DNA of 64,000 bases, from positions 1-64,000 of the IMG/VR virus record IMGVR_UViG_3300021964_000022; one strand, written 5' to 3'. Positions 1 to 63,818 of the stretch are shown here, piece by piece. The DNA is from a virus. The notes under the pieces are model-generated. The model had not been told where the DNA came from, searched no databases, and saw nothing but the letters and a program-made list of their open reading frames with translations. Both the position numbers and the translations under genes were made by a program. Every line of letters begins with the position of its first letter. Positions within the stretch are counted from its first letter, which is position 1.

Positions 1-852
1 TGTAACCGAATCTTCGCCACTTGCATCACACCATGCTATCCATTCTCCATTGGGTGCTATAACTCCTGACTTTACCTGTACTTGGTCTACTGGCTGAGGT
101 GCTACTCGTGGACCATTACACATTACGCCTGACGCTTGATGCACTTGAGGTTGTTGCATGGGCATACTCAAACTACTGTTGCTTACAACTATGTACACTT
201 GGTTCTGTTTGGCCAGTGTGCGTAGCATAACATCATGATAGTCGTATACCAATTGATCAAAGTCTCCTGTAGGTACATTACAGTTTGCACTTACGAAAAA
301 TAGTTTTACTCCGTGCTTCACAGCTAGGTCACTGATGAAATATGGATTGCCTCCTGGACTTACCATAGGAGTTGCCCAAGCATCATTACATATCAACGAG
401 CTGGCTACTACTGTGTTATCCTTGTCAGCATAGAACAGTGTGGGTTCAAATCCCTGTAGGTAATGTAATAGTTCGCCGCCACCTCCGGGTCTACGTGTTA
501 GTAATCTTTTTTGGTATGTACCAATTAGGTCGCCACTGTTAGCATATATCCTAGTTTGGTTATACGGAAAGCCATCTTGCTCTCTCCATCCTGTGCCTAG
601 TACTACTCCGGTACGTTGTGAAGCTGAAAAGTCTTCTAGTTGCTCTAAACAATCTCTAAGATTTTCTTCTTCATCTAAATCTTTTGATGCAAGTGTTGGA
701 GGCATGAAATAGCCACTCAATGCACATTCAGGAGTTAGTATCCACTCACTGTCTATGTTGGTAAGCATATGACGTTTGATTGTTTTCCAATTAGCCTTTA
801 CATCATCTGTTACAGGCATTTGTAAACTAGTAACCTTTATTGTAGTCGCCAT
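1..852 (-). CDS. Carbon-nitrogen hydrolase (nitrilase/amidase superfamily), 3' end runs off the window
   Basis: Not in the ORF track (no stop in window). Hand translation from ATG at 852 with AGGAG RBS: MATTIKVTSLQMPV...ILTPECALSGY...YQKRLL...LICNDAW, matching the Glu-Lys-Cys triad motifs of CN hydrolases. Confidence 0.85.
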   Translation of the reverse strand, partial: MATTIKVTSLQMPVTDDVKANWKTIKRHMLTNIDSEWILTPECALSGYFMPPTLASKDLDEEENLRDCLEQLEDFSASQRTGVVLGTGWREQDGFPYNQTRIYANSGDLIGTYQKRLLTRRPGGGGELLHYLQGFEPTLFYADKDNTVVASSLICNDAWATPMVSPGGNPYFISDLAVKHGVKLFFVSANCNVPTGDFDQLVYDYHDVMLRTLAKQNQVYIVVSNSSLSMPMQQPQVHQASGVMCNGPRVAPQPVDQVQVKSGVIAPNGEWIAWCDASGEDSVT

Positions 853-2533: not shown

Positions 2534-3982
2534 TTATTCGTCACCAAGGTTATTAAGAAATTGCTTTAGCTTAGTTGAGTCTACTTCTGCTTTTATCTTT
2601 CCTATGCCGCCGCCTTCTTGTGGGTCGCTTATAGTATCTTCATTTGTGCCTGTGCCTGCACCTCTTTTAATTTTATCAAATACTGTGTTACTACGTTGCG
2701 ATGAATAATTATTATTCTCATTTTCGTCTTCGTCAATATTTCTAATGCGTAGTGTGTCTAAGTCAAACTCTAAATCAATCTTTTGTCCAACACCGCCACT
2801 GTTACGTGTCTTCATCAACTGTAACTGATAGCGTCCACGTTCACGCATTGCTCTACTTGTAAAGATACCAAACACGTTATCAGCAGTTTGAATCTTACTA
2901 AGTCCGCCACTGATGTGCGAGTGATCAAATTCAATTTCTTCGACAGCACCTCTGTTCAACTGTGCCGCAGTTACAAACACTGTGTTCAATTCCATTGCTA
3001 GGTTACGTAGCTCTTCACTTACGTACTTGTCTTTGATAAACAAGTTCTCTGCACTTACTTTTGTGCTTGCTGGCATCAATAGATCCAAGTAGTCAATTAG
3101 TAATACGTCTACTCGCTTGCCTGTTTTAATTTCATATTCTTTAATGTACGAACGTACATCGTTTGCTGTCTTACCACTAGGCATATACTTGACTTGGAAT
3201 GCACCAGACTTCTTGCCAATCATCTTAACTTTCATTTCAACGTCATCAATGTTCTTAAACACATCACGACTTGGAATGCCTGTTACCATACTGTCAACAC
3301 GCATACTAACTAGTGCTTCACTAAGTTCTAGTGTTAAGTAAATTACATTCAATCCTGCTTCGGCCATGTTAACGCCAATGTTAGCAAGGAACAAACTCTT
3401 ACCTGCACCCGAACCACCTGCAAAGATATTCAGCTCGCCTCTGTTGAATCCGCCAAATAGTTTCTTATCAATTGCTCCCCAACCTGTGCTTACTTGTCCG
3501 TTTGTACTCTTGATGCCTTCTAGTCTAGCTCTTGGATCAGCATAGTAGTCTGTACCCAAGTCCTTTTGCAGTCCAATCTGTACAGCCTTCTTTACTATGT
3601 CTTCGCATTGTCCGTACTCACCTTTTTCAAGTAAGTCAGCACTCTTAAGGATTGCGGCTTCTAGTGCTTTGTGTTTACTAAACGTTTCAAACTCTGCTAG
3701 TAGCCAATCATAGTGACTTTCATTTAGATCACCTGGATGTCTTAATACATTATCACCTTGTAGTTCGCTTGCGGCGTTGATCATATCAAGTGTAGGCAAT
3801 GTATTATGTTCTGTAACATAGTTGCTAAGAAACTCTGCCGCTGGCTTTAAGCGTCTATCAAAACTATTTGGATCAAACACAGCCTGACAACGTACAAAAC
3901 TTTCTGCGTCTTGTAGCATCATTTCTAGATATACTTTTTGTATTTCATATCCGTAGTCTGTATTTTGTCTAGTGTCGCTCAT
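2534..3982 (-). CDS. Replicative DNA helicase (DnaB / T4 gp41-like)
   Basis: Walker A GGSGAGKS, LTLELSE, Walker B LLIDYLDL, TAAQLNR, KTRN. Confidence 0.93.
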   Translation of the reverse strand: MSDTRQNTDYGYEIQKVYLEMMLQDAESFVRCQAVFDPNSFDRRLKPAAEFLSNYVTEHNTLPTLDMINAASELQGDNVLRHPGDLNESHYDWLLAEFETFSKHKALEAAILKSADLLEKGEYGQCEDIVKKAVQIGLQKDLGTDYYADPRARLEGIKSTNGQVSTGWGAIDKKLFGGFNRGELNIFAGGSGAGKSLFLANIGVNMAEAGLNVIYLTLELSEALVSMRVDSMVTGIPSRDVFKNIDDVEMKVKMIGKKSGAFQVKYMPSGKTANDVRSYIKEYEIKTGKRVDVLLIDYLDLLMPASTKVSAENLFIKDKYVSEELRNLAMELNTVFVTAAQLNRGAVEEIEFDHSHISGGLSKIQTADNVFGIFTSRAMRERGRYQLQLMKTRNSGGVGQKIDLEFDLDTLRIRNIDEDENENNNYSSQRSNTVFDKIKRGAGTGTNEDTISDPQEGGGIGKIKAEVDSTKLKQFLNNLGDE

Positions 3983-4615: not shown

Positions 4616-4645
4616 ATTATACTTTCTTATACCACTGTTTGTCAA
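4616..4645 (-). promoter_or_regulatory. Sigma70-type promoter TTGACA-N18-TATAAT, -10 six nt before the ATG at 4609
   Basis: Minus strand aacacTTGACAaacagtggtataagaaagTATAATagtaggATG. Confidence 0.65.
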
Positions 4646-5594
4646 GTGTTATTTTGGTTTTTGTTTTGGCTAAAACTGCTCCTACACAGCTTCCAGGATC
4701 ACCAGGATTTGGCGGAACATGTATAGTACGCCATTGATTACGTATCTTATCTACCGCATCTTTGTTAAGAGCACCACCTCCTGCTAGTGCTACATTACTT
4801 GCACCTGTTTGTACTTTAGCCCAAATGCTCAGTATGTTGACTGCATACTCAAAGATGGACTGTGTGGCCGCCGCCAAGTCATACATGTCTTGTTGCGTCT
4901 TTAGTTCAGGCCTCCACCACATACAACCTCTGTGTAAATTCTCACGCATCTTAATATGATGGGGGTACTTGCCATTATGATCAACGTCTATAATTTCTTG
5001 ACGCATAGTATGTGATAACCTTTTAGGGTTACCTTTCTTTGCCCACTGGCTAACAAGATATTCATCACGCTGTGGTACTAGCCCCATACGTTGTGTCATA
5101 GCACTATAGAAAAGTCCTAGGCTATGTGGATACCCTTGACTGTATAACTTTGTAAGTTTGTCGTTCTTACCGTGCCATACTGTTAGGGTCTCGAACTCTC
5201 CAATACTATCTAAACAGATTACTGCACAATCATCATAGGGTTGAGTGTAGTAGGCATATGCCGCATGTGATAAATGGTGTTGGGTGTATTCTATTTTGCA
5301 AGATATATTCCATTGCGAGAGATATGATCTAATATTGTTTTCTTTATACAACCACCCTTGTCCAGCTCGCCATTGTCTAAATGTTTTAAGCAACGGACGC
5401 TCGTACCAAACTACTTTATTAGGCCTAGGTAACTTTTCTGTAATTGTAACATGCTGTAGCATCTCCCAATTAAAGTCGGGGTCATGAGGGACATTCGAAA
5501 AGTCTTTTGATTGTCCTGCCCACAACAGTTCGTTGTTATCAAATACAGCAAGACTTGCATCGTGGCTGTTTCCAACCATTCCCCAGTATATCAT
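4617..5594 (-). CDS. Carbamoyltransferase (NodU/CmcH family), N-terminal Kae1-like domain only
   Basis: HDASLA, HHLSHAAYAYY, DSIGE, SLGLFYSAMTQRMG, LAGGGALN, PNPGDPGSCVGA; stops at 325 aa with no EFGPRALG C-terminal domain. Confidence 0.85.
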   Translation of the reverse strand: MIYWGMVGNSHDASLAVFDNNELLWAGQSKDFSNVPHDPDFNWEMLQHVTITEKLPRPNKVVWYERPLLKTFRQWRAGQGWLYKENNIRSYLSQWNISCKIEYTQHHLSHAAYAYYTQPYDDCAVICLDSIGEFETLTVWHGKNDKLTKLYSQGYPHSLGLFYSAMTQRMGLVPQRDEYLVSQWAKKGNPKRLSHTMRQEIIDVDHNGKYPHHIKMRENLHRGCMWWRPELKTQQDMYDLAAATQSIFEYAVNILSIWAKVQTGASNVALAGGGALNKDAVDKIRNQWRTIHVPPNPGDPGSCVGAVLAKTKTKITLDKQWYKKV

Positions 5595-5603
5595 ACGTTG
5601 CTC

Positions 5604-5726
5604 CTATTTGTAAATAAACGGATCTTGTTTTTTAAGTTCTTCAATACGCTTCTTTATTTTTTGTTTACGTTTGTATTCAGCAATAGGCCAAGTAACCCAT
5701 TCCCAAAGTTTTTTTAAATAAACCAT
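5604..5726 (-). CDS. 40-aa basic peptide ending DPFIYK, upstream of carbamoyltransferase
   Basis: Hand translation MVYLKKLWEWVTWPIAEYKRKQKIKKRIEELKKQDPFIYK*; fills the primase-carbamoyltransferase gap; its stop overlaps the AGGAG RBS of the next gene. Confidence 0.7.
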   Translation of the reverse strand: MVYLKKLWEWVTWPIAEYKRKQKIKKRIEELKKQDPFIYK

Positions 5727-6700
5727 TTCTTTTGCCTCAATTTTATTTTTAATGCAGATTCTTCTGCGCCATTTACTATACTGTAAAGTGTATATAGTCT
5801 ACCGTACTTATTCACAGCTTCACTGACATCTTTAATATCCTGACTCCACTCAGGCATGCTTACACTCCAGCCATGATCAATAGCTGTTTGAATAAGTTTC
5901 GATCCTGCTGTGTCTCTATCAGGAACAATAATTATTTGCTTCTGCAATTTTTTTAACAACATTGCTTGCTGATCGCTAACTTCACTTCCGCCTAATGCAC
6001 AGCCTTCGATGTGTATTGCATCAATCTGTCCTTCACATACAATCGTAAATGCTTTATTATAACTTTGTTCGTCTAGTCCATATACAAAGCCAGGCTGTAC
6101 TTCTGTAAGATATTTAGGTTTCTTATCTGCTTGTACACTACGTCCTGTCCAACCTACTACTCTGCCTTCATAGTAGAAAGGTATAATTAATCTATCTCTG
6201 TATGCAAGCTCAGGAGTCCAATAGTATTCAGTGTCGTCCATATAAAGATTACGTTCTTTCATGTATTCAAAAATCTTCATTAAATTTTTGTCAACATCGC
6301 CACCTGCCCATTCCTGTAACTTACGTGCAGACTCAGGTAACGGAACTGTTTCAAATGTAGGCAGTAATGCTTTATGTTGTTGTACTATAACGCCTTCATT
6401 TTCACGCATGACATCTAGTGCTACCTTATTGATTATATCGTCAGGTGTACTCATCCATTGAAGTAACTTACGCATCTTGTGTGAAAAAGGTCTACCAGGC
6501 TTCCAACTTGCTTTGAATCCACAATTGAAACAATGATAACTTACGCCATTGTCGTTTTGAATGACGCCGCCACGTTGCCTCTTATCTGGTGTGTGGCCGT
6601 TATGATGACAACATGGAGCGTTGAATGAAGTCCAACCACTAGGAGTTGTTTTCCTCTTAGCAGGCAAATATGTCAGAACTGTTTCTACGACTACACTCAT
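5714..6700 (-). CDS. DNA primase (Zn-ribbon + TOPRIM, gp61/DnaG-like)
   Basis: APCCHH...YHCFNCG Zn finger; RLIIPFY..GRVVGWTGR; KPKY; VCEGQIDA; PDRDTAG; KDVSE. Confidence 0.92.
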   Translation of the reverse strand: MSVVVETVLTYLPAKRKTTPSGWTSFNAPCCHHNGHTPDKRQRGGVIQNDNGVSYHCFNCGFKASWKPGRPFSHKMRKLLQWMSTPDDIINKVALDVMRENEGVIVQQHKALLPTFETVPLPESARKLQEWAGGDVDKNLMKIFEYMKERNLYMDDTEYYWTPELAYRDRLIIPFYYEGRVVGWTGRSVQADKKPKYLTEVQPGFVYGLDEQSYNKAFTIVCEGQIDAIHIEGCALGGSEVSDQQAMLLKKLQKQIIIVPDRDTAGSKLIQTAIDHGWSVSMPEWSQDIKDVSEAVNKYGRLYTLYSIVNGAEESALKIKLRQKKWFI

Positions 6701-6707
6701 ACTATGT

Positions 6708-6736
6708 ATTATAGTATCAATACGATTGTTTGTCAA
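6708..6736 (-). promoter_or_regulatory. Perfect sigma70 promoter TTGACA-N17-TATAAT immediately before the primase ATG
   Basis: Minus strand TTGACAaacaatcgtattgatacTATAATacatagtATG. Confidence 0.8.
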
Positions 6737-7154: not shown

Positions 7155-7934
7155 TTAATTACGGATCAATACTTTATCAACAGTTCCGGCTGTAGGTTCG
7201 TGTTTGATACGTATCCAACTAAACACACCATTGAAGTTTATATACTTTGGCTCTGTTGGATTTGCTATTGAAGTTGTACTAACATCAACCCAGTTTGTGT
7301 TACTGTCTACTAAATTTTCAAGTGTTGCTTGTATTGTAACATCACCTGTATATCCTGTAGTGTATATTGCTGTAGTGTGTAATGCTTCATTGCCGTTAAG
7401 TGCAGGTTCTGCTTGTACTGCTTCACTGGCAAATACGTCTGTGCTTATTTCAGTAAACTGACTTATTTTGTAAGGATCTTTTGGTCCGGGTAATGTACCT
7501 GTATCTAATTCAATAGTTCCTTTAGCACCGAATTGTGCATCAGCATATGTAACAACATTGTTGTTATTGTTATCTACAAGGTGTACAAAATATGTAAGAT
7601 ACTGCCCGTCAAGGTTAAGTGTATCGTTGTCTGTAATATTTACTGTAAATTGACCTTTGTAGTTTGGTGTTGCTGTTTCTTTAATTGTTCCAGTTTTACT
7701 TAATACTAAAGTATTTTCTTGATCAAATGCTTGAAACTTTGCTGTGTAAGTATTTAAAATACTTACTGGCTTTTGGTTATTATTTTTTATTTCAAAAGTA
7801 AGAACATTGTCTATACCTTTAATAATTTTTAATTGTCTATTGTACACTTTTCTATACTCCGTAAGAGTCCCTGTCCATTCATCTAAGACTAGGACTGTTT
7901 TATTTGTTGCTAAATACCTTGACGTTAGTTGCAT
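7155..7934 (-). CDS. Hypothetical beta-rich protein, possibly virion-associated
   Basis: 259 aa, Thr/Asn-rich; ATAAATA late-promoter motif 4 nt before ATG. Confidence 0.6.
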   Translation of the reverse strand: MQLTSRYLATNKTVLVLDEWTGTLTEYRKVYNRQLKIIKGIDNVLTFEIKNNNQKPVSILNTYTAKFQAFDQENTLVLSKTGTIKETATPNYKGQFTVNITDNDTLNLDGQYLTYFVHLVDNNNNNVVTYADAQFGAKGTIELDTGTLPGPKDPYKISQFTEISTDVFASEAVQAEPALNGNEALHTTAIYTTGYTGDVTIQATLENLVDSNTNWVDVSTTSIANPTEPKYINFNGVFSWIRIKHEPTAGTVDKVLIRN

Positions 7935-7954
7935 ATTATATTTATCGGAAACCT

Positions 7955-8323
7955 ATGCTAAGAAAAGAATTAGAAGACAATTATCCATTTTTAAGTGTGA
8001 TTACTTATGGCGGTGTAGAATACATTGGCATTATAAATAATCAAGACAGTAGTATTACGAGTATGTACGTTTACACAGAATTACGTAGTGACATTGAAAA
8101 GAAAAACTTTGTTAAGTGCGGAGAAGACTGGTGGTGGGAATCAAATAGAATGATACCTATCAGCATATTCTTAAAGAATGACATGAATCCATTTAAGTAT
8201 ACTTTACAAACTATGAATACAAAAGATGTAAAAGTAACACATGGACCAACTGTAGATTTAAGTAATTTAGCTATTAAAAGAGTAAAACGTAAGAGTATTC
8301 AACTAATACGCAAACCTAGATAG
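7955..8323 (+). CDS. Conserved hypothetical phage protein
   Basis: 122 aa from ATG 7955; YPFLS...EYIGII.N...WWWESNRMIPISIFL; basic C-terminus. Confidence 0.65.
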   Translation: MLRKELEDNYPFLSVITYGGVEYIGIINNQDSSITSMYVYTELRSDIEKKNFVKCGEDWWWESNRMIPISIFLKNDMNPFKYTLQTMNTKDVKVTHGPTVDLSNLAIKRVKRKSIQLIRKPR

Positions 8324-8879
8324 ATTGTAAATTTTCACACAATAAATTCATGTGTACAACACATGCCATTGCATACGAAACTGCGTGTGCTTTCTTAAAA
8401 AAGTACTCACCATTAGTTGGCTTTGTCCACACTTCTTTCATTATTGTTTCCCAACTTTCGTTCGCTAGATATCTTTTTGCCGGACGTATTATCGCTAGTG
8501 TTGCGGCTAATTGTTGTACCGAGTTGGGCTTCAATAGTTTTAATAGACTGCTGTGTCCGTTTAGATGAAAGACCTTTTCGCTGAAGTCTTCGTGTTCCAA
8601 TAGTTCCCATAATGGCTCCTTGTTCATTAGGTTGACTAAATGTGTCTCGTCTTTTACATCTTTGTATATAGACACATTAAGAAAATCTAATTTAAAATAT
8701 CCTCGTTCTTCTGCTGTCTTATAATCTATTGTACTTAGATTGTCTACAGGATTATGCGGACACTCTGTAACATATACACCAGTGTTATGTTTTTTACTTG
8801 TATCTAATTTTGCCACACGGTGTTGTATCTTATTTAAGATAATTTCTCTATCTGCAAAATCTATATCAATATCAGGCAT
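8316..8879 (-). CDS. Miniature / split DNA polymerase III alpha (DnaE, family C) catalytic core
   Basis: DnaE motifs in order: MPDIDIDF, KHNTGVYV, GYFKLDFL, VFHL, LKPNSVQQLAATLAIIRP, FKKAHAVSYA, in only 187 aa. Confidence 0.85.
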   Translation of the reverse strand: MPDIDIDFADREIILNKIQHRVAKLDTSKKHNTGVYVTECPHNPVDNLSTIDYKTAEERGYFKLDFLNVSIYKDVKDETHLVNLMNKEPLWELLEHEDFSEKVFHLNGHSSLLKLLKPNSVQQLAATLAIIRPAKRYLANESWETIMKEVWTKPTNGEYFFKKAHAVSYAMACVVHMNLLCENLQSI

Positions 8880-9366
8880 ACTTATTATACTTTACTGCTT
8901 TCTTTTTAGCCATGTCCCATTTAAGTTTACTTACTCTATCTTTAAAAGTAATACCCTGTAAATGATCCCATTCGTGCAAGAAACATTTTGCACTATAGCC
9001 ATCAATTTTAACTTGTTGCTTTTTTAATTCATGATCGTAAAATTCAACTAATATCTCTTTAGGTCTTGATACTTTAACATACATATTTGGAAAACTTAAA
9101 CAGCCCTCTGTATCAACAACAGTATCTTGTGTATGCTGTAGTATCTGTGGATTAATACAAATAATTGTATTCTCTGGCTTGTCACCCATTATAAAAAGTT
9201 GTGCGTCTAATCCAACTTGACTTGCACTAAGTCCAATACCATTATTGTCTAACATAATTTTTGTCATGTCGTCTTTTACTTTTACAGGATCAAACCCTGG
9301 GTTATCTAAGTCAACTGCTTTTACTTGTTTTTCTAAGAACTTATCTGGATAGTATAATAATTCCAT
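8872..9366 (-). CDS. def: Peptide deformylase
   Basis: All three PDF motifs: GIGLSASQVG, EGCLS, HEWDHLQG. Confidence 0.95.
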   Translation of the reverse strand: MELLYYPDKFLEKQVKAVDLDNPGFDPVKVKDDMTKIMLDNNGIGLSASQVGLDAQLFIMGDKPENTIICINPQILQHTQDTVVDTEGCLSFPNMYVKVSRPKEILVEFYDHELKKQQVKIDGYSAKCFLHEWDHLQGITFKDRVSKLKWDMAKKKAVKYNKYA

Positions 9367-14692: not shown

Positions 14693-15198
14693 TAAAATAA
14701 TTCTCCGTATTGTATTAATTCAGTCTGGCGTGTTACGTCTCTAATAAAGTAAGCACACAACGGATCTTTATCCATTGTAATCGGAATCGTTAATAGTTGT
14801 CCGTTCTTTACTTTAGGAAAAAACCACTTGACATCGTTATAAAAATTAGTTACCTTAATGTCTCCAAAGTCTGGCTTAAAGCTGGTTAACGGATTATATA
14901 AAAATGCTTCGAACCCTCTATCTGCTATACTTGTTAATTGTAATACTTCTAAATCATTTCCGCTTTCACTACAACCTACTGCCATGTGCCAATCAATCGG
15001 CATCATTATTTCATTACCTGCTATCTCTAAAACAATCGCCGGACTACTAAAAGATTCTAGAAATATCAAAGGAACGTAAAAAAAGTCTGGCTCTTTTGGA
15101 TCTGAATTATCTAATATACTAAATCTTATATCTTCTTCTAACTCGTCGGGTAGTTGCTGTAGATCAAGCGGTTGGTTTTCTAATGTTAATATTCTCAT
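14692..15198 (-). CDS. Conserved hypothetical protein coupled to UvsW (possible degenerate Hint fold)
   Basis: MRILTLEN start overlaps the helicase stop; beta-rich pattern. Confidence 0.6.
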   Translation of the reverse strand: MRILTLENQPLDLQQLPDELEEDIRFSILDNSDPKEPDFFYVPLIFLESFSSPAIVLEIAGNEIMMPIDWHMAVGCSESGNDLEVLQLTSIADRGFEAFLYNPLTSFKPDFGDIKVTNFYNDVKWFFPKVKNGQLLTIPITMDKDPLCAYFIRDVTRQTELIQYGELF

Positions 15199-16658
15199 TT
15201 CCAATCCACCTTTTCTATTGTAAAGGGATACTCTGCTTCTTTGTAAAACTTTTTACGTTGAGTCAGATGTCGCTTCGCAAACTTACATGTTGATGTAAGA
15301 TCCCATATTTGCACGAAGTCTTTGTCCTTTGCCTTTCTTACGCCTCTACCTATAGATTGTATAACTCTTACAAAACTTTTCCCAGGTTCAATAAGAACAA
15401 GATTGAAAATACGAGGAATGTTAATCCCAACCGCGGCTACTCCATATGTAGCAATTACTACATGATTTGTACCTTGGTTAATATCATCATATGCTTCTTT
15501 TCTATCTTTTAATTTAACGTCTCCTTTAACAAAAACGCTTCCAGGTATCTGCTCAGCAAGCATTTCACCTGCTGATATTCTGTCTACTAGTATTAGTGTG
15601 TTGCCTGATTCTTTTACATTGTTTAATAGTTTGCCTATATATTCTAGTCTTTGTTGATTTGTTGTTAAGTATTTTAATTCTGATTGATAATCTGTATGTG
15701 CTACTGTGTCTATTAACTGCACTACGTTAACATGACATTGTGATAGTACTCCTTTATCTTGAAGTTCTTTTGCACTAATTTGTCCTATAACAGGGCCTAA
15801 GGATGCATGTATGGACTCAAATTCGAACTTTTCTCTTGGTATAGTACCAGTTAGTCCCCAACGTATTGGAGCATTTTTTAAGTTACGTGTGAGTAAATTT
15901 TTAAGAACTTCTGCTTTTGCTTGATGAACTTCATCAACAATAACAGTACTAACACCGTCTAAGAACTCTGCAAGTGATAACACTGCTGAGCCATCTTTAT
16001 GCTTCTTGTCAAGTATATTCAAACTCTGCCAAGTGCAAATAGTGTGCGTCTTTCCTAGTTCTTTTCTGTCTCCAAAGTATACACCTACATCAAGTCCACA
16101 GTTAATATAATCTTCTTCTGTTTGTGTAACAAGCGACTTGTTAGGTACAATAACAAGACTACGTCCATACGGTTCAGTTAAATGACTTAGTGTAGCAGTA
16201 GTGATAGTCTTACCTGCTCCGGTTGCGATCTGTTGCAAGCTCTGTGGATGTTTTAAAAAGTTATTAATTGACTCTACTTGATAGTCACGTAGAATAATAT
16301 CTTCGCCTTCTGCTGGATGTCCTTTGGGCCATACAACTCCTAAGTCTTTCCAATAGTTTTCTGTAACAGGCGTAAAGTTTAATGTAATAGGATGACGTCT
16401 ATCTTCAATGTCTACTATTTGTACATTATTTTTTTGTAGCACTTCACTAACAACATCAAGATGGTTGACATAGCCAGTACCACCAATACCAAAGAAAGCA
16501 ACCTTTCCATCCCAACGACCAAGTTTATACTGTGGCATGTATCTTGCATAAGGCACTTCAAACTTGAGAGCATTCGCCAATTTCCTTCGTACATCAACTT
16601 CTAGTCCTTCTAGTTTTATGTTTACTTCATCTTCGATTATTAATTTACATGATGCCAT
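15195..16658 (-). CDS. uvsW: UvsW-like superfamily 2 helicase
   Basis: LRDYQ, ATGAGKT, DEVH, GLTGT, ATYGVAAVGINIP, QSIGRGVR. Confidence 0.9.
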   Translation of the reverse strand: MASCKLIIEDEVNIKLEGLEVDVRRKLANALKFEVPYARYMPQYKLGRWDGKVAFFGIGGTGYVNHLDVVSEVLQKNNVQIVDIEDRRHPITLNFTPVTENYWKDLGVVWPKGHPAEGEDIILRDYQVESINNFLKHPQSLQQIATGAGKTITTATLSHLTEPYGRSLVIVPNKSLVTQTEEDYINCGLDVGVYFGDRKELGKTHTICTWQSLNILDKKHKDGSAVLSLAEFLDGVSTVIVDEVHQAKAEVLKNLLTRNLKNAPIRWGLTGTIPREKFEFESIHASLGPVIGQISAKELQDKGVLSQCHVNVVQLIDTVAHTDYQSELKYLTTNQQRLEYIGKLLNNVKESGNTLILVDRISAGEMLAEQIPGSVFVKGDVKLKDRKEAYDDINQGTNHVVIATYGVAAVGINIPRIFNLVLIEPGKSFVRVIQSIGRGVRKAKDKDFVQIWDLTSTCKFAKRHLTQRKKFYKEAEYPFTIEKVDWK

Positions 16659-50851: not shown

Positions 50852-53800
50852 TTAAGCCTGAGCTTCACCCCATTTAATAATAATATTAGCATTAACTGCC
50901 GCACCTGAAGTTTTATAAACATTCACTGCTAGTACATCTGGTCCATTCGGGAATGTACCTCTACCACCTAGTGTAGTGTTTGTTAATTCTTTTAACTGTC
51001 CTAGATCAAGATCTGATCTTTCACCTGGCGTAGCAATAAATGAAAATACTGTTTCACCTGGCTGTGCATACGGAGGTTGTCTAAACACAAAGTTAAATGC
51101 ATCACCTGGACTAACTGTACCTGTTGCGGCATTGTTAAACGATACTCTGTAGTAGTTAACAAATTCACCCGGTACATCCGGATCACCAAATAGTAACGGT
51201 CCTTCTACACCAGACACATATGTTGATGCTGGAAACGCAATATCACCTTGGTCAGTTGGTGGATCATTAAGTTCTGTACCAGATTTTGCGCCACTTGCTG
51301 TCCATGATGCTTCAGTAAACAACGCAAAGTTTCTGTTATCAGAATCTCCGCCAAAAGCAAATGTAATGTTTTGGTTATCTACTAGGTTACTTGTTGAAGT
51401 TGTACTAAATCTTACAAATACATATGATCCTTGGTTTGTTATCTGAGTAATTGTTGTACCGTTTGCAAATTTTGAATCGTCAACTTCACTACCTACTACT
51501 AAGTTTTTGTCTAAGAAACTTGGGTAGAAGTAAGCATAGTTTCTACGTCTATTAGACTGGAATGTATTCATCTGTGCGTTGACTTGTGTTCTTGGAATGA
51601 TTGTTGCTGTTGCAGTAGTTGATGTATCTCCTGAACTCCATACAACCGAACCACCTGATGCAACTTGTGCGAAACTTGGCTGTCCACCTTGTGCTAGTCC
51701 TGACAGTCCCTGCCAACCAACATCTGCTGGATTCAATGGATAGTTTTGTGGATTAAGAATACCTTCAACAACAATACCGCCTAAGATACTATTTCCACTA
51801 CCGTCTTCACCATCTGATGTAATCTCCATAGACTGCATAAGCAACTGAGCTCTGTTTAGTAGTTCTCTGTCACCTAAGTCGCCAACAATAGCGTTTGAAA
51901 CACTAGGTGCTAGTCGTAATAAGAATGCTGTTTGTCTTGTAGTACTAATAGCCAATCCTGTTTCTGTATATGAGAAGATATATCCTCTATCATCATCAAA
52001 ATTACCATCTGTAATAAACGCTGAACCCCAGTGTGATATAAGTGGTGTAATAGTATTACTTACAAGTACAACACCTGTTTTCTTATCGTGTGTTGTTGCT
52101 GGACCTGCTGTGTACTGTCTTTGGGCACCAGCTTGGAAGTTAAACATACTTACTGCTCTAGTCAATCCTGTTAATCTATTTTGTGCATAATCTACACTAC
52201 TAAATGCAATTAGTTCGTTATCAATATAAACTGTTCCACTAGTTGGGAAGAAACGTGCATCATCTAACGGAACATATGCAGTATTGTCTGACATATTTTC
52301 TGATAGTTTTCCTGGAGGTCCTTCGTTAGTAACTTCATAACGTACAGGTAAGTTACCTGAACGCATAAATGCTTCTGTGTTTACGTTTGAGTTACGCATT
52401 CTGTGTGCAAACACAAAGTTACCATCTGCACCACGTAGCATCCAATCAATAAAACCAGCACCATACCAACTGTACTGAATTCCAATCATCTGCATGTATG
52501 CAATGTCAATTTTATATCCGCTTGGTCCTGTACCATCTAATCTATCTAAGTTGAATTCATCTTGTTTAACTTTTTTATCAGTTACCAAACATACCTTTGC
52601 CGCTAATACAGCATTTACACCTCTGTAATCTGGTGTAACTGTACATTGAGTTTGACTGTTAACATGACTTACAACGTGTGTCATTCCTCTGATAACAATT
52701 CTATCACCTGCTTTTAGCTGATCTCTAAACTTAGTACCAGTTCCTGTAATAAGGTTTGCATCAGGAGCAATAGCAATAGTTCCTGCAATTTGTTTTGTAC
52801 TTGTACGCTGTGCTACTGTAATATTAGAACCATCGTATTCCCAATAAATTCCGTTTTGATCATCAAAGATACCTGAACGCACAGTTGCACCGTGCCAACC
52901 TGTTACAGCAACCTGAGCCGCAAATCCTAGTGTAGCTTCTATACTTCCTAAACGTCTTACACCTAGAACTTTAAATGTTCTTTCGTTTACAACTTGCGTA
53001 ACTGTGTAATTACCATTATAACCTTCTGTCTCTACACCTATAAGTCTAACTTTACCGCCAACCTGCATTCCGTGATCGTTATCATCACATGTTACAGTGA
53101 TTGTTGATCCAACTTCTGTTCCGTTTGAAGTAACACTTGCAATGTCATAACTTGGAGCAAATAGTGCACCAGTTGTGTACATAATACCTTTACCTGATTG
53201 GTATCTAATATATTTCTTACTTTGACGTATTGCTTGTGCGCCGTGTTGTGGTCCGCCTGTTCCTAACTGAACACCACCATCATATGGTCTGTGAATAAAG
53301 AAACTGTCTGGACGTAAGTAGATGTTAGCTAGAATACTATCGTTACCTGTAGTTGTTATAGCACCAGGTGCTCTTGCTGGGTATCTAATAGTATTAACTG
53401 TTGGAACTTGTGTTGCAATAAATGCGCCACTTGCTAATGAGTGATTGTTAGTTCCACCACCTTCTCCATCATCGGAGCTCACTGTTACAATAAATGTCGC
53501 GCCTGGAACAACTCCGTGTGCGTTAGTAAATGTTGCTTCTAATGTTGCTAATGCTTCGAATGGAATCTCTTCAGCCGCTGTAATTGGAGCAGTTGTAAAT
53601 TCTGACATTGTAACTGAGTTAACTAATGATAAACTATCACCTGCAATACTTGTACCTGTTACTGATCCAGTTGAAATTGCACCAGTTGACACACCGGTTA
53701 CAGTTACTACGGCATCATTTGCTGGACTTGCGCCACCTAAATCAGTACCTAAAATAGTAATAGTATTACCCACTCTATAGTTTGTACCGCCAGTTACATT

Positions 53801-56800
53801 AACTGCTACTGAAGCGTATGCGGAACCTGTTCTTGTAATATCTAAACTTGCGCCTGATCCGTTGTTTGCAACGTTTGTACCTGATACTCCCGTAAACACA
53901 CTAGCTAATGTGCTAGGTGTACCAACTGAACTTATTGCTTCAACTTCACCTAAGTTACCTGCTGTAGTTACAGTTATGGTTATATCATTAGCCGGAGTTG
54001 ATCCGCCTAATTGACTTCCTTCAATAACAAATGTTTGACCTAGGTGGTAATCTGTTCCAGCAGTAGCAATAGTTACTGTGTATGCCGCACCATCATTTTC
54101 AATATCAAATGTTGCACCTGAGCCTGCTAAGTCACTACCACTTTTACCAAAGAAGCCGCCTGAATCTGCCGCTGTTGCTTGTGATGATACATCAGCGCCT
54201 TCTATTCTAAATCCTATTACTTCACCACTTGCACCTACATCGTTAATTCTTAAAACTAAGTTATTTGTTGGCGCTGTACCACCTAAATCAGCACCTGAAC
54301 AAGTAATTGTGTCTGCTGTTGTATAACCTGTACCAGCCGCTGAAATATTTACACTGTAAATACCACTTGATGCTGTAACACCAAATTCAAAGCCCGAACC
54401 TGAACCACCAGTGTAACTTAATTCACTGCTGTTAAAGTTATATGATCTATCTTCTGGCGGTGGAGTACCTATTGACCAGTCGCCTGTATCAATAGCTGTA
54501 CCTGTAATATTTCCTGAGCCGTCTACACTTGTTACTTTAAATACTAAATCGTTACCGCCAGCACTTTGATTACCGTCTACACCAGTTCCTGGTAATATAC
54601 TGCTACCTAAGACTCTAATTCTATCATTAACAGCATAACCTGCACTGCCGTTCGGTGAATTTAGTGTAACAGTAGCATATGCACCGTCTGCATAAGTAAT
54701 GTCTATCTGTGGTAACGTACTACCGCCTGCGTTTGTATATGTTGTAGTTGGATTATTATATGTAATCGCACCGTCTAGTGCTGTACCTGAGATAGTTACT
54801 GCTGTAATACCTCCACTACCGTCAACTGTTGAAACTGTAATTGTTGCATCATTAGCAGGAGTTGTGCCGCCTGTGTTTGCTCCAGATACTAATATCTGAT
54901 CGCCTGTAACATATCCGCTACCTGCTTGATCAATACTGTCAACACTATAAACTGCGCCAGCCTTGCTTACCGTAAATTCTGCGTTAATACCTGCGGCCGC
55001 TGTTGTTGTTCCTGAAACTGCTGTATAAGTTTGTTGGCTTTGTGTTAGTGCCGCTGTAAATTCGCCACTCATAGTTACAGTATTTCCTGTAACGTCTGTT
55101 ACGAAAATACCATCACCTGTACCATTATTTGCCGCTAGTCCGACTACAATACCTGTAGTACTTGATACATCAAATGTAGTATCACCTATACTAATAGGTG
55201 CAGTAGTTATCGGTACTAATGCATTTCCGTTTGGAGTACTTGAAACACCAGTTACCTGTGCGCCTTCTGGAATATCAGCATAAACAATCGGTGCGCCAAT
55301 TTCTGGAACATCACCTGTAAATGCTAATCTATTTTCACCAGTCTGAGCCGCTAAACTAAGTGTCATAGTACCCGCAGTACCGTTACTTACAACAGTAACA
55401 GCTGGGTTACCAACTGCCGCTCCTGTATAAAAATCACCTTTACGTAATTGTGTATAAGTTGTTGAAAGAACATCACCGTTAGTTGTACCAACTTTTGCTT
55501 TTGCAAAAAATGTAAATGTATTATTTGTAGGAACAGTAGTAATAACAAAACTACCTTCTGCTCTACTTGCGCCGACTACACTGTCTTCAAGAGCTTTAAT
55601 TGTAATTGGAGTACCAGGAGTAAATCCGTGTGAACCCTGTGTAGTAACTGTAATTAAACTTGCACCAATTCCATCTGTGCCAGCTGAAGCGTCTGTAACA
55701 ACTGATTGTACTTCTGTATCAGTGCCTGGAATTTCGTATATACTCGGATAACCACGCTGTGTACCAATAGCTGACCATTTAGTAGGCTGTAGTCCATATT
55801 CAAAGTCAGCGTCAAGCATTGACAATGGAGGAGCAATACGCATACGCTCAATAGCATCAGTACCAAAATCGTATGGTCTTGTTCTAATTTCTGGAGTTTC
55901 TACATAAATTTGTACATCATCTGTAGTTTCATGTGCCGATGTATTGTACTTAAGATTAAGTGTAACAACACCGTCTGTCATCTGTAGATATTTTTTAAAG
56001 TCATCATCAGCATCTCTGTTTGCAGATGTAAAGTCGTATTTTAGTGTATAACCACTACTGTCTCGAGGTATGTCATCTGTTTTAAGTGCTAGTGTTGCTC
56101 CTTTAGCAGGGTCGCTAAAGTTATAAATTATTTCGTTACGTGTACTATTTGTAATTAAAAGTATATCACTTAAATCATAATTACCTTCAAATCTAATATG
56201 ACCTAAACCTTTGTTTTCTAAAGTAGGTAAACTACTTAGACCATTTGTAATAACATCAATTACTATTCCAGAAAGTGTACTAATTCTAGTTGCACCATTT
56301 CCTTCTGCTGTTTTAGAAACATCAATAGTTTGAGCTATTTCTGATTGATATGGCGTAGCTTGTGCAGTATTTGTTAAGATGTTGTTGTTAATTAAGTTTC
56401 TTGTAAATTCTTTTGCACGTATTTCTGGAAGTCTGTCGCCATCAACCTGAGCTACACTTCCTTCCCAATATGTGCTTGCTATTCTATATGTTTCTTCATT
56501 ACCATTATATCGTAAATCATGTAACCACGCTGTAAGGTTAAAGCCTGTATCACGTTCACACTTTTCTTGGTTATATGAGTATGCCGCTTCTGGAGTAACT
56601 TCAGAAATAATAGTTGTTTGGTTTGAATCAATAGCATTATAAGCAGTTGTTAAACTTGCACTTACCCAACCAATACTAGGTGTTGTTCTTGTTATACTAT
56701 CAATTGATCCTGCTGTTGTAATTTCGTTTGCTGTATATTGAATTAATGTATTCCAATTAATATTACCAATAGTAACAATATCAGAACCGCCATCTTCGTC

Positions 56801-57619
56801 TTGAGCAACGTTGTTACCTGTTTGCGGAGTTACTGTATTACCTTGAATAATTTCTAAACCAATTGTTTTAAGATGTGCTATTGCCGCAAGCATTGCTGTT
56901 TGGTATTCTTCTCTACCAACTTCACTGTATGTTACCATACCTTTTGCCGCGTCCCAACTTGCCGCAGTTCCGCCATATATAATATCGTAAGTAGCGGCCA
57001 TTGTTAAAATTTTAATATCGTTTTCAAATAAATCTTGATCGTAACCTAGTGTAGGATAGTTAACATTTACATATGCACTGACATCGTTTACAATAAAGTT
57101 TAAGTTAGCGTTAAGCTGATTTTTTGCTGATACATTGTCAACGTTTGCACTAGTTGGATCTGTCCATGTAACTGTATCTGCACTTAGATAACCGTTTTGT
57201 GCAACGTCAATTACTTCATTCCATGCCGCGTTTAATCTTGCTACGGCTGTTGCATCTGCTTTTACACCACTTAGGTCAGCAAATCTTGCTTTAGCATTAA
57301 CAAGAGTATTGACAACAGTATTACTAATGTCGATAGAATATTGCTCCATAGTACCTTGGAATATTGCATTATAATTTGTTCCGAACGCCATATCATATTG
57401 TGTAGCGTCTGTAATGTATCCTAAGTCTCTAATACACTTTGCTCGATTAAATAAGAAGTCTGTGTTTCCGTTATCAACTTGTGCTTGTATCCAAGCCGCT
57501 ACCTCTTTCTTTAAAAAGTTGTAGTTTTGATTAATTAAACTCCAAGCATTTGGATAAGCATTGTCGTCTATCCCTAGTCCAGGTCTAAACACATAATTTT
57601 CTATCTTTTTCTTTGCCAT
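50852..57619 (-). CDS. Very large virion structural / tail-fibre-like protein (2255 aa)
   Basis: Gly/Thr/Ser-rich; five repeats of Y..G..I...G...GG..P.ND..I.V; N-terminal KCxRD helical repeats; RYQSGKG and YSWYGAG blocks typical of aquatic myovirus structural proteins. Confidence 0.75.
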   Translation of the reverse strand: MAKKKIENYVFRPGLGIDDNAYPNAWSLINQNYNFLKKEVAAWIQAQVDNGNTDFLFNRAKCIRDLGYITDATQYDMAFGTNYNAIFQGTMEQYSIDISNTVVNTLVNAKARFADLSGVKADATAVARLNAAWNEVIDVAQNGYLSADTVTWTDPTSANVDNVSAKNQLNANLNFIVNDVSAYVNVNYPTLGYDQDLFENDIKILTMAATYDIIYGGTAASWDAAKGMVTYSEVGREEYQTAMLAAIAHLKTIGLEIIQGNTVTPQTGNNVAQDEDGGSDIVTIGNINWNTLIQYTANEITTAGSIDSITRTTPSIGWVSASLTTAYNAIDSNQTTIISEVTPEAAYSYNQEKCERDTGFNLTAWLHDLRYNGNEETYRIASTYWEGSVAQVDGDRLPEIRAKEFTRNLINNNILTNTAQATPYQSEIAQTIDVSKTAEGNGATRISTLSGIVIDVITNGLSSLPTLENKGLGHIRFEGNYDLSDILLITNSTRNEIIYNFSDPAKGATLALKTDDIPRDSSGYTLKYDFTSANRDADDDFKKYLQMTDGVVTLNLKYNTSAHETTDDVQIYVETPEIRTRPYDFGTDAIERMRIAPPLSMLDADFEYGLQPTKWSAIGTQRGYPSIYEIPGTDTEVQSVVTDASAGTDGIGASLITVTTQGSHGFTPGTPITIKALEDSVVGASRAEGSFVITTVPTNNTFTFFAKAKVGTTNGDVLSTTYTQLRKGDFYTGAAVGNPAVTVVSNGTAGTMTLSLAAQTGENRLAFTGDVPEIGAPIVYADIPEGAQVTGVSSTPNGNALVPITTAPISIGDTTFDVSSTTGIVVGLAANNGTGDGIFVTDVTGNTVTMSGEFTAALTQSQQTYTAVSGTTTAAAGINAEFTVSKAGAVYSVDSIDQAGSGYVTGDQILVSGANTGGTTPANDATITVSTVDGSGGITAVTISGTALDGAITYNNPTTTYTNAGGSTLPQIDITYADGAYATVTLNSPNGSAGYAVNDRIRVLGSSILPGTGVDGNQSAGGNDLVFKVTSVDGSGNITGTAIDTGDWSIGTPPPEDRSYNFNSSELSYTGGSGSGFEFGVTASSGIYSVNISAAGTGYTTADTITCSGADLGGTAPTNNLVLRINDVGASGEVIGFRIEGADVSSQATAADSGGFFGKSGSDLAGSGATFDIENDGAAYTVTIATAGTDYHLGQTFVIEGSQLGGSTPANDITITVTTAGNLGEVEAISSVGTPSTLASVFTGVSGTNVANNGSGASLDITRTGSAYASVAVNVTGGTNYRVGNTITILGTDLGGASPANDAVVTVTGVSTGAISTGSVTGTSIAGDSLSLVNSVTMSEFTTAPITAAEEIPFEALATLEATFTNAHGVVPGATFIVTVSSDDGEGGGTNNHSLASGAFIATQVPTVNTIRYPARAPGAITTTGNDSILANIYLRPDSFFIHRPYDGGVQLGTGGPQHGAQAIRQSKKYIRYQSGKGIMYTTGALFAPSYDIASVTSNGTEVGSTITVTCDDNDHGMQVGGKVRLIGVETEGYNGNYTVTQVVNERTFKVLGVRRLGSIEATLGFAAQVAVTGWHGATVRSGIFDDQNGIYWEYDGSNITVAQRTSTKQIAGTIAIAPDANLITGTGTKFRDQLKAGDRIVIRGMTHVVSHVNSQTQCTVTPDYRGVNAVLAAKVCLVTDKKVKQDEFNLDRLDGTGPSGYKIDIAYMQMIGIQYSWYGAGFIDWMLRGADGNFVFAHRMRNSNVNTEAFMRSGNLPVRYEVTNEGPPGKLSENMSDNTAYVPLDDARFFPTSGTVYIDNELIAFSSVDYAQNRLTGLTRAVSMFNFQAGAQRQYTAGPATTHDKKTGVVLVSNTITPLISHWGSAFITDGNFDDDRGYIFSYTETGLAISTTRQTAFLLRLAPSVSNAIVGDLGDRELLNRAQLLMQSMEITSDGEDGSGNSILGGIVVEGILNPQNYPLNPADVGWQGLSGLAQGGQPSFAQVASGGSVVWSSGDTSTTATATIIPRTQVNAQMNTFQSNRRRNYAYFYPSFLDKNLVVGSEVDDSKFANGTTITQITNQGSYVFVRFSTTSTSNLVDNQNITFAFGGDSDNRNFALFTEASWTASGAKSGTELNDPPTDQGDIAFPASTYVSGVEGPLLFGDPDVPGEFVNYYRVSFNNAATGTVSPGDAFNFVFRQPPYAQPGETVFSFIATPGERSDLDLGQLKELTNTTLGGRGTFPNGPDVLAVNVYKTSGAAVNANIIIKWGEAQA

Positions 57620-60797: not shown

Positions 60798-61665
60798 CTG
60801 ACCATCCTATCTTATCTGTGTTTAATTCTATCCATCCAAGTTTACTTAAAACTGGTAGGTAGTTCTCTGTTATTTTAGTTTGATAATGTTCTGCTAATTC
60901 TATTGCCTTTTCATTTAATTCAGTTTCACCTAGCAGAGGTAAAATATATTCTTCTAAGTATTTTAAATACTCAAACGGTAAAGGATGCATCTCGGCTCGA
61001 GCTTCTTCTAAAGTATCTCCCATATTTGCTAACGTCATTGGGCGACTGTCAACATATTTTTCCGGATCTTTAGGATTATATCCGTTCCAATCCATAATTG
61101 CAGGAGCATCAGAAGTTAAATAATTTTTATATTGATTAAGAACTCCGTTTACACTGCTCGGAGTAAGTGGCTCAGTGTAGTCGAGTTTACTATTTTTATC
61201 AGTTAAATTATTATAATGATCTGCATAAGCAAATTTTATATATTTACAACCTTTTTGTTTTAAAAATATTTCTATACTTGCAATCATAGCACAGTCTCTC
61301 ATTACACAATGTACTTGATCTGCCCATTGGTACTGATCTCTATAATCAAAATTATTTAATGTCATTGGTTCGTGTTTTAATTGGCCGTGATATAAATTTC
61401 CTGCATTATGCCAGCCCGTTCCTTCGATCCACCTATCATCTCGTAGCATACTTGTCCATTGTACTATAATGATATCGTCTTTTGTAAAATTATAAATCGA
61501 ATCTGCTTCAAATATTCTAGTAAAAATATATTGATTACCGGCACCTGACTTCCCCCAGTTCTCTGATTTTTCAAGTTTATCTCCAAAATGCCAAATTAAT
61601 AAGTCGGCCCATGTAGGATAAAAAAATTGTGTTAAACTACACCCGAAGGTAAAAAGTCTAGCCAT
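60790..61665 (-). CDS. Hypothetical protein, SGNH-hydrolase-like
   Basis: FGCSLT, GAGN, QWTS..R.D, HP near C-terminus. Confidence 0.55.
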   Translation of the reverse strand: MARLFTFGCSLTQFFYPTWADLLIWHFGDKLEKSENWGKSGAGNQYIFTRIFEADSIYNFTKDDIIIVQWTSMLRDDRWIEGTGWHNAGNLYHGQLKHEPMTLNNFDYRDQYQWADQVHCVMRDCAMIASIEIFLKQKGCKYIKFAYADHYNNLTDKNSKLDYTEPLTPSSVNGVLNQYKNYLTSDAPAIMDWNGYNPKDPEKYVDSRPMTLANMGDTLEEARAEMHPLPFEYLKYLEEYILPLLGETELNEKAIELAEHYQTKITENYLPVLSKLGWIELNTDKIGWSDD

Positions 61666-63130: not shown

Positions 63131-63203
63131 GTTATTCTCCGTTGTGTAATATTTATTGGCCTCAGACCTAATAATTGTAGAGTCTGAATCTCGTAAATAC
63201 ATT

Positions 63204-63818
63204 ATGCACAATTTAACCATAGACAGTAGTCCAATAATAGAATGTAATGTTGACAAAATACAAGTACAGGATCATAGTGACATTAAAGATCAACTAATGC
63301 ACATTGTACACGACTTGTATAAGAGCAATGTCAACTATAACACAGCAAATCATAGCAGTGTTTGGTCAAGTCCTAACGGATTACAAAGTATACACAGTTT
63401 TAATCGTATTGCAAGCGGTCCTGAAATACAAACATATGCTAATCTTATGGTTGATCGATATAAAATTAAAAGTAATAGACAGATTGCTATTACAGACATG
63501 TGGATTACTATAATTCCGCCGGGAGGGATGACTGTTCCTAAGAATAGAATTAAAAGTTTAGTAACAGGTATCTATTTTCTTAATGCTCCGGCAGAGAATG
63601 CCAGTATAAATTTTAGAAAACCAATTGATACACACTGGTACGACAAAGTTTATGATCCTTTTAACCGTACTCACTATAATTGTCCTGAAGAATTATTACA
63701 AATGCAAGAAGGATATATGTACTTCTACCCTAGTTACATAGAATCTCATCAAACTACTAATGTGAGTGAGCACGAAAGGGTGTGTATTGAATTTATTTTA
63801 GATTCTGTAGACAAATGA
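63204..63818 (+). CDS. TIGR02466-like 2OG-Fe(II) oxygenase homolog lacking the Fe-binding histidines
   Basis: DMW.TI.PPGG...KNRIKSLVTGIYFL...YFYPSYIES...RVCI.F. Confidence 0.65.
   Translation: MHNLTIDSSPIIECNVDKIQVQDHSDIKDQLMHIVHDLYKSNVNYNTANHSSVWSSPNGLQSIHSFNRIASGPEIQTYANLMVDRYKIKSNRQIAITDMWITIIPPGGMTVPKNRIKSLVTGIYFLNAPAENASINFRKPIDTHWYDKVYDPFNRTHYNCPEELLQMQEGYMYFYPSYIESHQTTNVSEHERVCIEFILDSVDK

Follow-up and report, generated by a model that had tools for sequence, protein, structure and literature searches.

The window analysed here is the whole stretch of 64,000 nucleotides at positions 1 to 64,000 of the IMG/VR virus record IMGVR_UViG_3300021964_000022, a 110-kb fragment that CheckV estimates to be about 30% complete and whose source is an uncultured estuarine/marine giant phage. 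One of its genes, 187 amino acids (aa) long, very probably encodes the C-terminal unit of a split, minimal alpha subunit of DNA polymerase III (Pol III alpha, or DnaE), that is, part of a family-C polymerase core which in the T4-related 'group 2.2' jumbo phages would operate as a non-covalent two-chain enzyme beside a family-B polymerase (PolB). The product of this gene is referred to below as the C-half, and the separately encoded chain bearing the GRGS motif as the N-half.

The C-half gene, its fold and its conservation

The C-half gene runs from an ATG start to a TAG stop codon (8316-8318), and its product begins with MPDIDIDF and then presents KHNTGV (residues 29-34), KLDFL (63-67), VFHL (103-106), LKP...LAIIRP (116-133) and FKKAHAVSYA (161-170). 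The DxD block and the FKKAHAVSYA finger motif align with residues 413-424 and 773-788 of Mycobacterium tuberculosis DnaE1, respectively, the profile alignment of the KxDFL block to Escherichia coli alpha starts at residue 539, and the region of R132-P133 aligns with the ...AL(Y/F)RPGP block of DnaE. The positions of these elements and of the neighbouring genes are collected in Table 1.

Table 1. Positions in the window of the C-half gene, its conserved motifs and other replication-related or adjoining genes
Feature	Position	Strand	Remarks
Coding sequence of the very probable C-terminal (Mg2+- and template-binding) unit of a split minimal Pol III alpha	8316..8879	-	187 aa
D3-I-D5-I-D7 codons, metal-binding DxD strand	8859..8873	-	counterpart of MPDFDVDF in cellular DnaE
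K63-L-D65 codons, third catalytic Asp (KxDFL motif)	8685..8693	-	K63 and D65 invariant
R132-P133 codons of the LAIIRP finger motif	8481..8486	-	invariant (n=74 sequences)
F161-KKAHAVSY-A170 codons, finger motif	8370..8399	-	counterpart of FNKSHAxxY in DnaE
Peptide deformylase (def)	8872..9366	-	phrog_2890, E 9.5e-39; 164 aa; 8-nt overlap with the C-half start
Convergent 139-aa gene (phrog_11637)	7904..8323	+	E 2.8e-35; 3' end overlaps the end of the C-half gene
DNA primase	5714..6736	-	phrog_47, E 1.3e-41
DnaB/gp41-like replicative helicase	2534..3982	-	phrog_19, E 6.9e-72
DNA helicase (further)	15195..16658		among the T4-type genes of the window

At the family level, the C-half matches PHROG 11778 'DNA polymerase' (phrog_11778, proteins of about 197 aa) with an E-value of 2.4e-60. 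Its sole Pfam match is a sub-threshold hit to a finger domain, and as a single sequence it is matched to M. tuberculosis DnaE1 in three collinear blocks (413-424, 566-664 and 763-788) at an E-value of 0.76. The profile of the C-half family, built from 74 sequences, finds Pol III alpha chains only among its PDB matches (9/9, best E 6e-5). Pfam detects no PHP, beta-binding or OB domain in the C-half, and the GRGS...FERF segment is not found in its open reading frame (ORF). A preliminary description of this DNA had reported, without giving a strand, an ORF of this length that opens at MPDIDIDF and carries the listed motifs in DnaE order, with most of the intervening DnaE sequence deleted, the equivalents of all three catalytic aspartates (D3, D5 and D65) present, the GRGS...FERF segment and the three domains just named missing, and an intact def gene upstream; each of these points was borne out, the gene lying on the minus strand.

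The predicted structure points in the same direction. An AlphaFold2 model of the C-half made with the 74-sequence alignment reaches a predicted local distance difference test score (pLDDT) of 96.3 and a predicted template modelling score of 0.88, and Foldseek places nothing but C-family polymerases among its top 15 PDB matches for this model (Pol III alpha/DnaE-type entries and one named 'DNA polymerase with inhibitor'). With VIA-align, 185 of the 187 residues are superposed on residues 461..841 of Thermus aquaticus alpha (Z 10.1, root-mean-square deviation (rmsd) 3.5) and 181 residues on 400..781 of E. coli alpha (Z 9.2, rmsd 3.9); the top 14 chains are all C-family polymerases, with PolC-type entries following those of T. 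aquaticus and E. coli, and the first unrelated chain appears at Z 3.2. Thus, 187 residues cover a region for which the cellular enzyme needs about 380. In E. coli alpha, the PHP domain occupies residues 1-270, the palm 271-432 and 511-560, the thumb 433-510 and the fingers 561-911. Because the model aligns to E. coli 400..781, these boundaries suggest that the thumb and much of the fingers have been excised from the C-half, which would also terminate ahead of the distal fingers, the clamp-binding motif and the HhH and OB domains.

Relatives of the C-half of similar length were found by tblastn at 34-52% identity in PA5oct-like phages, Phosso, Atu_ph07, RaK2/K64-1/121Q-like phages, SCTP-2 and Vibrio jumbo phages, so that its identity to any isolated phage is at most 52%. 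At least 547 viral contigs of IMG/VR carry relatives, of which the best 80, 71-87% identical to the C-half of the window, served as the environmental comparison set. In these 80, the length of the protein stays between 185 and 191 aa and the start is exactly MPDIDIDF in 72, and the median ratio of nonsynonymous to synonymous substitution rates (dN/dS) against the window gene is 0.12 (63 unsaturated pairs). An exhaustive HMMER search of 1.84 billion representatives returned 416 hits, and the best 150 of them, with few exceptions, do not exceed 220 aa and match from within the first 10 residues or so. In an alignment of the 74 diverse sequences, which descend to about 31% identity, D3, D5, D7, K63, D65, R132 and P133 are invariant, and H31, G34, Y36, P41, W91, P118, K135, K162, H165 and A170 are conserved in at least 90% of the sequences; among close relatives, K162, K163, H165 and Y169 are also invariant.

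The separately encoded N-half and the assembly of the two chains

In the genomes of Phosso (469 kb) and Paride (287 kb), the Pfam model DNA_pol3_alpha matches a second, distant locus, and does so only over profile positions of about 21-97. The genes concerned are Phosso gp138 (177 aa) and Paride_0087 (169 aa), the latter equivalent to PA5oct EST35_0288, and the final 40 or so residues of these N-halves read ...GVGRGSSVASYVLFLIG...EFL(N/K) up to the stop. G002 and G003, two close metagenomic relatives of about 236 kb each, have C-halves that share 72-75% identity with that of the window; both encode a 185-aa N-half that ends ...GVGRGSS...WREFLR and lies more than 100 kb from the C-half. Taken together, the N-halves of Phosso, Paride/PA5oct, G002 and G003 measure 169-185 aa and end ...GVGRGSS(V/S)AS...(D/R/K)EFL(N/R/K) and stop, which is exactly the point at which the MPDIDIDF of the C-half starts. 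The N-half profile maps to residues 271-392 of E. coli alpha, where the palm begins directly after the PHP domain, and no PHP domain was detected anywhere in the Phosso or Paride genomes. The distance between the two genes ranges from 11 to about 230 kb across isolates and relatives. The proposal made in the preliminary description, of a two-chain polymerase with the ORF as one half and the gene for a GRGS-bearing partner at another place, is therefore supported by distant N-half genes in complete and near-complete relatives.

The N-half is itself a large family, with at least 7,993 clusters at 90% identity, all of about 183-187 aa, many of which are called 'DNA polymerase III alpha subunit' by the Joint Genome Institute. 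Among isolated phages, the two halves co-occur at about 1:1 genus by genus, the counts per genus for the two halves being 34/34 for Escherichia, 8/8 for Erwinia, 8/8 for Salmonella, 4/4 for Xanthomonas, 4/4 for Yersinia and 10/11 for Klebsiella. In three further contigs (G001, G004 and G005) neither N-half nor PolB was found, from which nothing follows because these contigs are just 42-73% complete. The Alishewanella phage vB_AspM_Slickus01 (OQ508957.1) carries both halves about 11 kb apart, at 68379-68924 and 79814-80056; since its genome of 141.6 kb falls under the 200-kb 'jumbo' limit, the split enzyme is not confined to genomes above 200 kb.

The two halves also occur as one chain. Three independent metagenomic clusters (P0231, P0273 and P0274) of 375-376 aa consist of an N-half, an 8-residue linker and a C-half, the sequence running ...GVGRGSS...EFIK, linker and ADFDIDT...; the latter two clusters are 78-81% identical to P0231 and come from ENA and Logan assemblies. 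On the fusion, the N-half aligns to residues 15-180 and the C-half of the window to residues 189-368, and the Pfam palm model extends unbroken over the junction (residues 97-207). Such fusions are rare; their closest other relatives are split C-halves at 51-59% identity, and a scan of viral contigs returned no relatives of the fused P0231. Another metagenomic protein, P0254 (233 aa), has a C-half in its first 110 or so residues (DFDVDID...KHNTGVY...KLDVL) followed by a pseudouridine synthase (PF00849, E 1e-8), and is probably the product of a chimeric or frameshifted contig, not a real fusion.

A complex of the two halves, as the preliminary description had proposed to model, was predicted with the C-half of the window and the N-half of G002, and it passes its controls. 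The score is 0.92, against 0.00 for the best of three controls, and the mark set for this score is reached by 58 of 80 solved complexes and by 2 of 110 mismatched pairs, counts that are approximate because the alignments had been made for this analysis. Between runs, at least 98% of the contacts recur, and the partner pLDDT is at least 87. In the model, residues 2-9 of the C-half contact residues 146-159 of the N-half, with the VWGVGRGSS segment among the parts touched, and the contacts of lowest error are those of C-half residues 6-8, on the DxD strand, with N-half residues 150-151, just ahead of GRGS. The first 70 or so residues of the G002 N-half (L094:1174-1728) are highly conserved and have no DnaE match, the profile match beginning at residue 72; in the complex model they contact the C-half. 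Folded alone, the N-half gives a pLDDT of 56, low at residues 1-77 and 148-185, compared with 87-88 in the complex; as the predictor was a different one and the alignment shallow, this difference is not read as folding only on binding. The formation of one enzyme from the two units thus finds computational support in the natural fusion, in the near 1:1 co-occurrence and in the predicted complex.

Gene neighbourhoods and the family-B polymerase

Each half is tied to a different replication module. Around the C-half, the gene order is phrog_11758, phrog_11058 (with a C2H2-like zinc finger), def where present, the C-half, the convergent phrog_11637, a virion protein, the primase and the DnaB helicase, an order shared by Phosso, Paride and PA5oct. 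The two upstream genes phrog_11758 and phrog_11058 are found in 80/80 relatives, and phrog_11637, just downstream on the opposite strand, in all 76 with enough flank. The primase follows on the same strand, at a distance of 1.0-3.9 kb downstream, in 54 of the 55 relatives with enough flank, and the DnaB helicase was found in the flanks of 52. By comparison with the constant flanking genes phrog_11058 and phrog_11758, def sits directly upstream of the C-half in just 31 of 80 relatives and is accordingly a variable insertion, outside the polymerase unit.

The N-half, for its part, has the clamp loader at a distance of 2-3 kb in G002 and Paride. Downstream of the N-half of G002 come, at that distance and after a GroES-like gene, a DEDD exonuclease and the clamp loader; in Paride/PA5oct the N-half is upstream of a chaperonin and of a gene annotated as clamp loader in Paride, and in Phosso it is near GroES and an AAA-ATPase of unconfirmed identity. 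This linkage of the halves to two replication modules, primase/helicase for the C-half and clamp loader for the N-half, supports a role at the replication fork without defining that role. The stand-alone DEDD 3'-5' exonuclease of G002 (187 aa; L099:8746-9306, plus strand; Rv2179c-like Pfam domain, E 2.9e-42; phrog_255) abuts the clamp loader (L099:9306-10217, plus strand), and might act as a DexA-like nuclease or proofread, as a separate protein, for the PHP-less mini-polymerase.

A family-B polymerase is encoded by Phosso (1013 aa), G002 (892 aa), G003 (899 aa) and Paride; that of Paride apparently falls into two open frames, one of 825 and one of 379 aa, separated by about 2.5 kb (record 88906-92683; L003/L005/L007). 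Because the relatives carry this normal family-B polymerase too, the mini-enzyme is to be seen as an addition to PolB and not as its substitute. Regarding the T4-type replisome invoked in the preliminary description, the gp41/DnaB-like helicase and the primase are confirmed, and what has to be amended is the place of the mini-enzyme, which accompanies PolB and does not replace it. Other T4-type genes in the window are those for the large terminase, tail sheath, tail tube and baseplate. The window also contains a Nol-like carbamoyltransferase gene between primase and helicase (4617..5594, minus strand), a tryptophan-halogenase-like gene (61658..63256, minus strand; phrog_2928, E 2.5e-104) and a 2,255-aa ORF (50852..57619, minus strand), none of which has a connection with the split polymerase.

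As to habitat, the stretch is almost completely present in estuary/marine metagenome runs from many studies between 2018 and 2025, with estuary runs covering 97-99% of it. Three studies have yielded RNA-library contigs that extend over part of 8316..8879, X16 (7828-8590) being one of them; these are not counted as evidence of expression because DNA carry-over is possible and the strand is not shown.

Interpretation and comparison with known systems

In the enzyme proposed here, the C-half would supply the metal-binding D3, D5 and D65 together with K63, as well as a shortened finger subdomain with R132-P133 and K162/H165/Y169. The GS loop that binds the triphosphate would come from a second chain of about 185 aa encoded far off, for this phage outside the 110-kb fragment. 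The chains most likely assemble without a covalent link, the DxD strand of the C-half pairing with the strand that enters the GRGS loop, and the resulting pair would form a single Pol-beta-like nucleotidyltransferase active site, some 370 residues in all and devoid of PHP domain, thumb, clamp-binding motif, HhH and OB domains, which would work beside, and not in place of, the T4-like family-B replicase. We infer this assembly into a single active site, with the GS loop from the N-chain and the metal, template and nucleotide finger contacts from the C-half, and, with less confidence, a part as accessory polymerase in templated DNA synthesis at the fork, where it might elongate primers from the nearby primase and then hand over to PolB, or else fill gaps and contribute to repair.

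Several other explanations of the C-half have to be weighed against this one. The ORF is very short in relation to the 1,160 aa of DnaE and its single-sequence matches to DnaE are weak, as would be expected of a pseudogene fragment of a formerly full-length phage or host dnaE. Such decay is ruled out by the uniform lengths and shared start motif of the best 80 relatives, by the dN/dS of about 0.12 and by catalytic residues that are invariant across 74 diverse sequences, to which the small size of nearly all of the best 150 HMMER hits and the confident predicted fold can be added; the preliminary description had named variable decay, loss of the aspartates and lack of a partner as outcomes that would speak against a functional gene, and what was found instead is constant length, purifying selection, invariant aspartates and a partner in relatives. 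The C-half is a conserved gene under purifying selection and not a remnant, and an origin as a pseudogene is given practically no credence. Joining of the halves by a split intein has an established precedent in the trans-splicing split DnaE of cyanobacteria, and the papers on split DnaE that a literature search brought up all concern systems of this type. Here, trans-splicing is rejected because neither end leaves space for intein segments, the N-half stopping at ...EFL(N/R/K) and the C-half opening at MPDIDIDF; moreover, the natural fusion requires merely the 8-residue linker, and the split lies just ahead of DxD, unlike the cyanobacterial site. We regard such splicing as exceedingly improbable.

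It could also be argued that the C-half works alone, given that it is predicted to fold by itself with high confidence and that no partner gene was found on this contig. Against this stand its lack of the GS nucleotide-binding loop, the occurrence of both halves at about 1:1 in isolates, the collinear fusions and the fact that the contig is merely about 30% of the genome, and independence of the C-half from a partner appears almost inconceivable. More serious is the possibility that the two chains do assemble but constitute a repurposed minimal nucleotidyltransferase of the Pol-beta fold instead of a templated DNA polymerase, for instance one that modifies DNA or nucleotides, produces a nucleotide signal or acts as a terminal or untemplated transferase. 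The missing thumb, PHP, clamp-binding, HhH and OB parts, the compression of some 380 residues of E. coli alpha into 187, the complete PolB replisome already present in relatives and the want of any activity report in the literature searched would all fit such a role. However, conservation exceeds the bare nucleotidyltransferase triad, with the DnaE-specific finger motifs R132-P133 and K162/H165/Y169 kept, the fold matches the palm and fingers of Pol III along its whole length, and both halves belong to replication modules. A non-polymerase role is consequently judged unlikely, and it is retained at that level because the thumb and the DNA-binding modules are missing.

Some observations weigh against a split Pol III alpha as proposed here. 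In the 110-kb record, no N-half was found with the Phosso N-half as query, by tblastn with two N-halves or with the Pfam palm model; no GRGS motif occurs across its six frames, in keeping with the absence noted in the preliminary description, and the Pfam PolB model finds no PolB on it. The search for a GRGS-bearing ORF and a PolB suggested there thus succeeded for both in relatives and for neither on the record itself. As the record is only about 30% complete, the missing N-half is not evidence of absence; nevertheless, with N-half and PolB both off the record, the two-chain claim for this particular phage rests on its relatives. The success of the complex prediction may be a memory of Pol III alpha, and mirror likeness to its structures, because full-length relatives of these halves have been solved, and need not mean that these copies bind. 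An enzyme that lacks thumb, clamp-binding motif and HhH/OB domains would have to hold primer-template DNA by other means. Finally, a literature search found no biochemical or genetic work on any member of the family, a jumbo-phage review of 2026 leaves the split enzyme unmentioned, and the main text of the PA5oct omics paper gives no per-gene expression timing.

A ~370-residue family-C polymerase divided through its active site would set a lower bound for the catalytic core of Pol III-type enzymes, and, with N-half clusters numbering at least 7,993 and C-half contigs at least 547, two unrelated DNA polymerases would be at work in a large clade of T4-related giant phages that is very abundant. 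The two-chain mini-Pol III might more specifically be a dedicated primer-extension and hand-off polymerase, by analogy with DnaE beside PolC or with eukaryotic Pol alpha, a tentative suggestion that we hold to be possible more than probable. Were it true, jumbo-phage replisomes would be obligate two-polymerase machines that combine a bacterial-type family-C core with an archaeo-eukaryotic-type family-B replicase, and no active family-C polymerase would be smaller than the ~370-aa core or the fusion of 375 aa found in nature.

The kind of system to which the C-half belongs has already been described, and the copy in the window is one more example. The split minimal Pol III alpha of 'group 2.2' jumbo phages was reported from sequence, in terms close to those of the preliminary description, by Iyer et al. 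2021 (Viruses 13:63, PMC7824862), who suggested that it may cooperate with PolB in the synthesis of one strand or in repair, and proposed the minimal split enzyme as a model of the ancestral enzyme. What the present analysis adds is quantitative support from selection, invariant residues, fold and co-occurrence, the linkage of each half to a different replication module, and the rare natural single-chain fusion. Like the C-units of that group (PA5oct EST35_0220, Paride_0017, Phosso gp437 and the RaK2/121Q homologues), the C-half of the window is a stand-alone protein of about 190 aa that starts at DxD and carries Mg2+- and template-binding subdomains, its neighbours are a convergent small gene, a virion protein, the primase and the DnaB helicase, and its relatives encode an N-unit far off as well as PolB. 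It differs from the isolated group 2.2 phages in sequence, being at most 52% identical to them and belonging to a large uncultured estuarine/marine clade (71-87% identity), and in the insertion of def directly upstream, as in 31 of 80 relatives.

With bacterial Pol III alpha/DnaE (E. coli, 2hnh; T. aquaticus, 3e0d; M. tuberculosis DnaE1, 5lew), the C-half shares the palm and finger fold (Z 9.2-10.1) and, in the same order, the three catalytic aspartates, the lysine of KxD, the RP pair and FxKxHAxxY. Unlike in these enzymes, about half of the 400..781 region, including the thumb, has been removed, the mini-enzyme is without the PHP domain, distal fingers, clamp-binding motif, HhH, OB and tau-binding parts, and the active site would be shared between two polypeptides, the GS loop being on the partner chain in relatives. 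The split DnaE of cyanobacteria (Synechocystis/Nostoc) is likewise a family-C polymerase made from two distant genes, but its halves are full-size, split elsewhere and ligated by trans-splicing, whereas the phage pair has no intein segments and is divided immediately ahead of the catalytic DxD. In Bacillus subtilis, which employs both PolC and DnaE, DnaE extends RNA primers before hand-off. The phage system would resemble this arrangement, as a functional analogy, in having a second, non-processive C-family polymerase together with a main replicase and in the linkage of its gene to primase and helicase; it is unlike B. subtilis in that the main replicase of these phages belongs to family B and the accessory enzyme would be a two-chain core of only about 370 aa.

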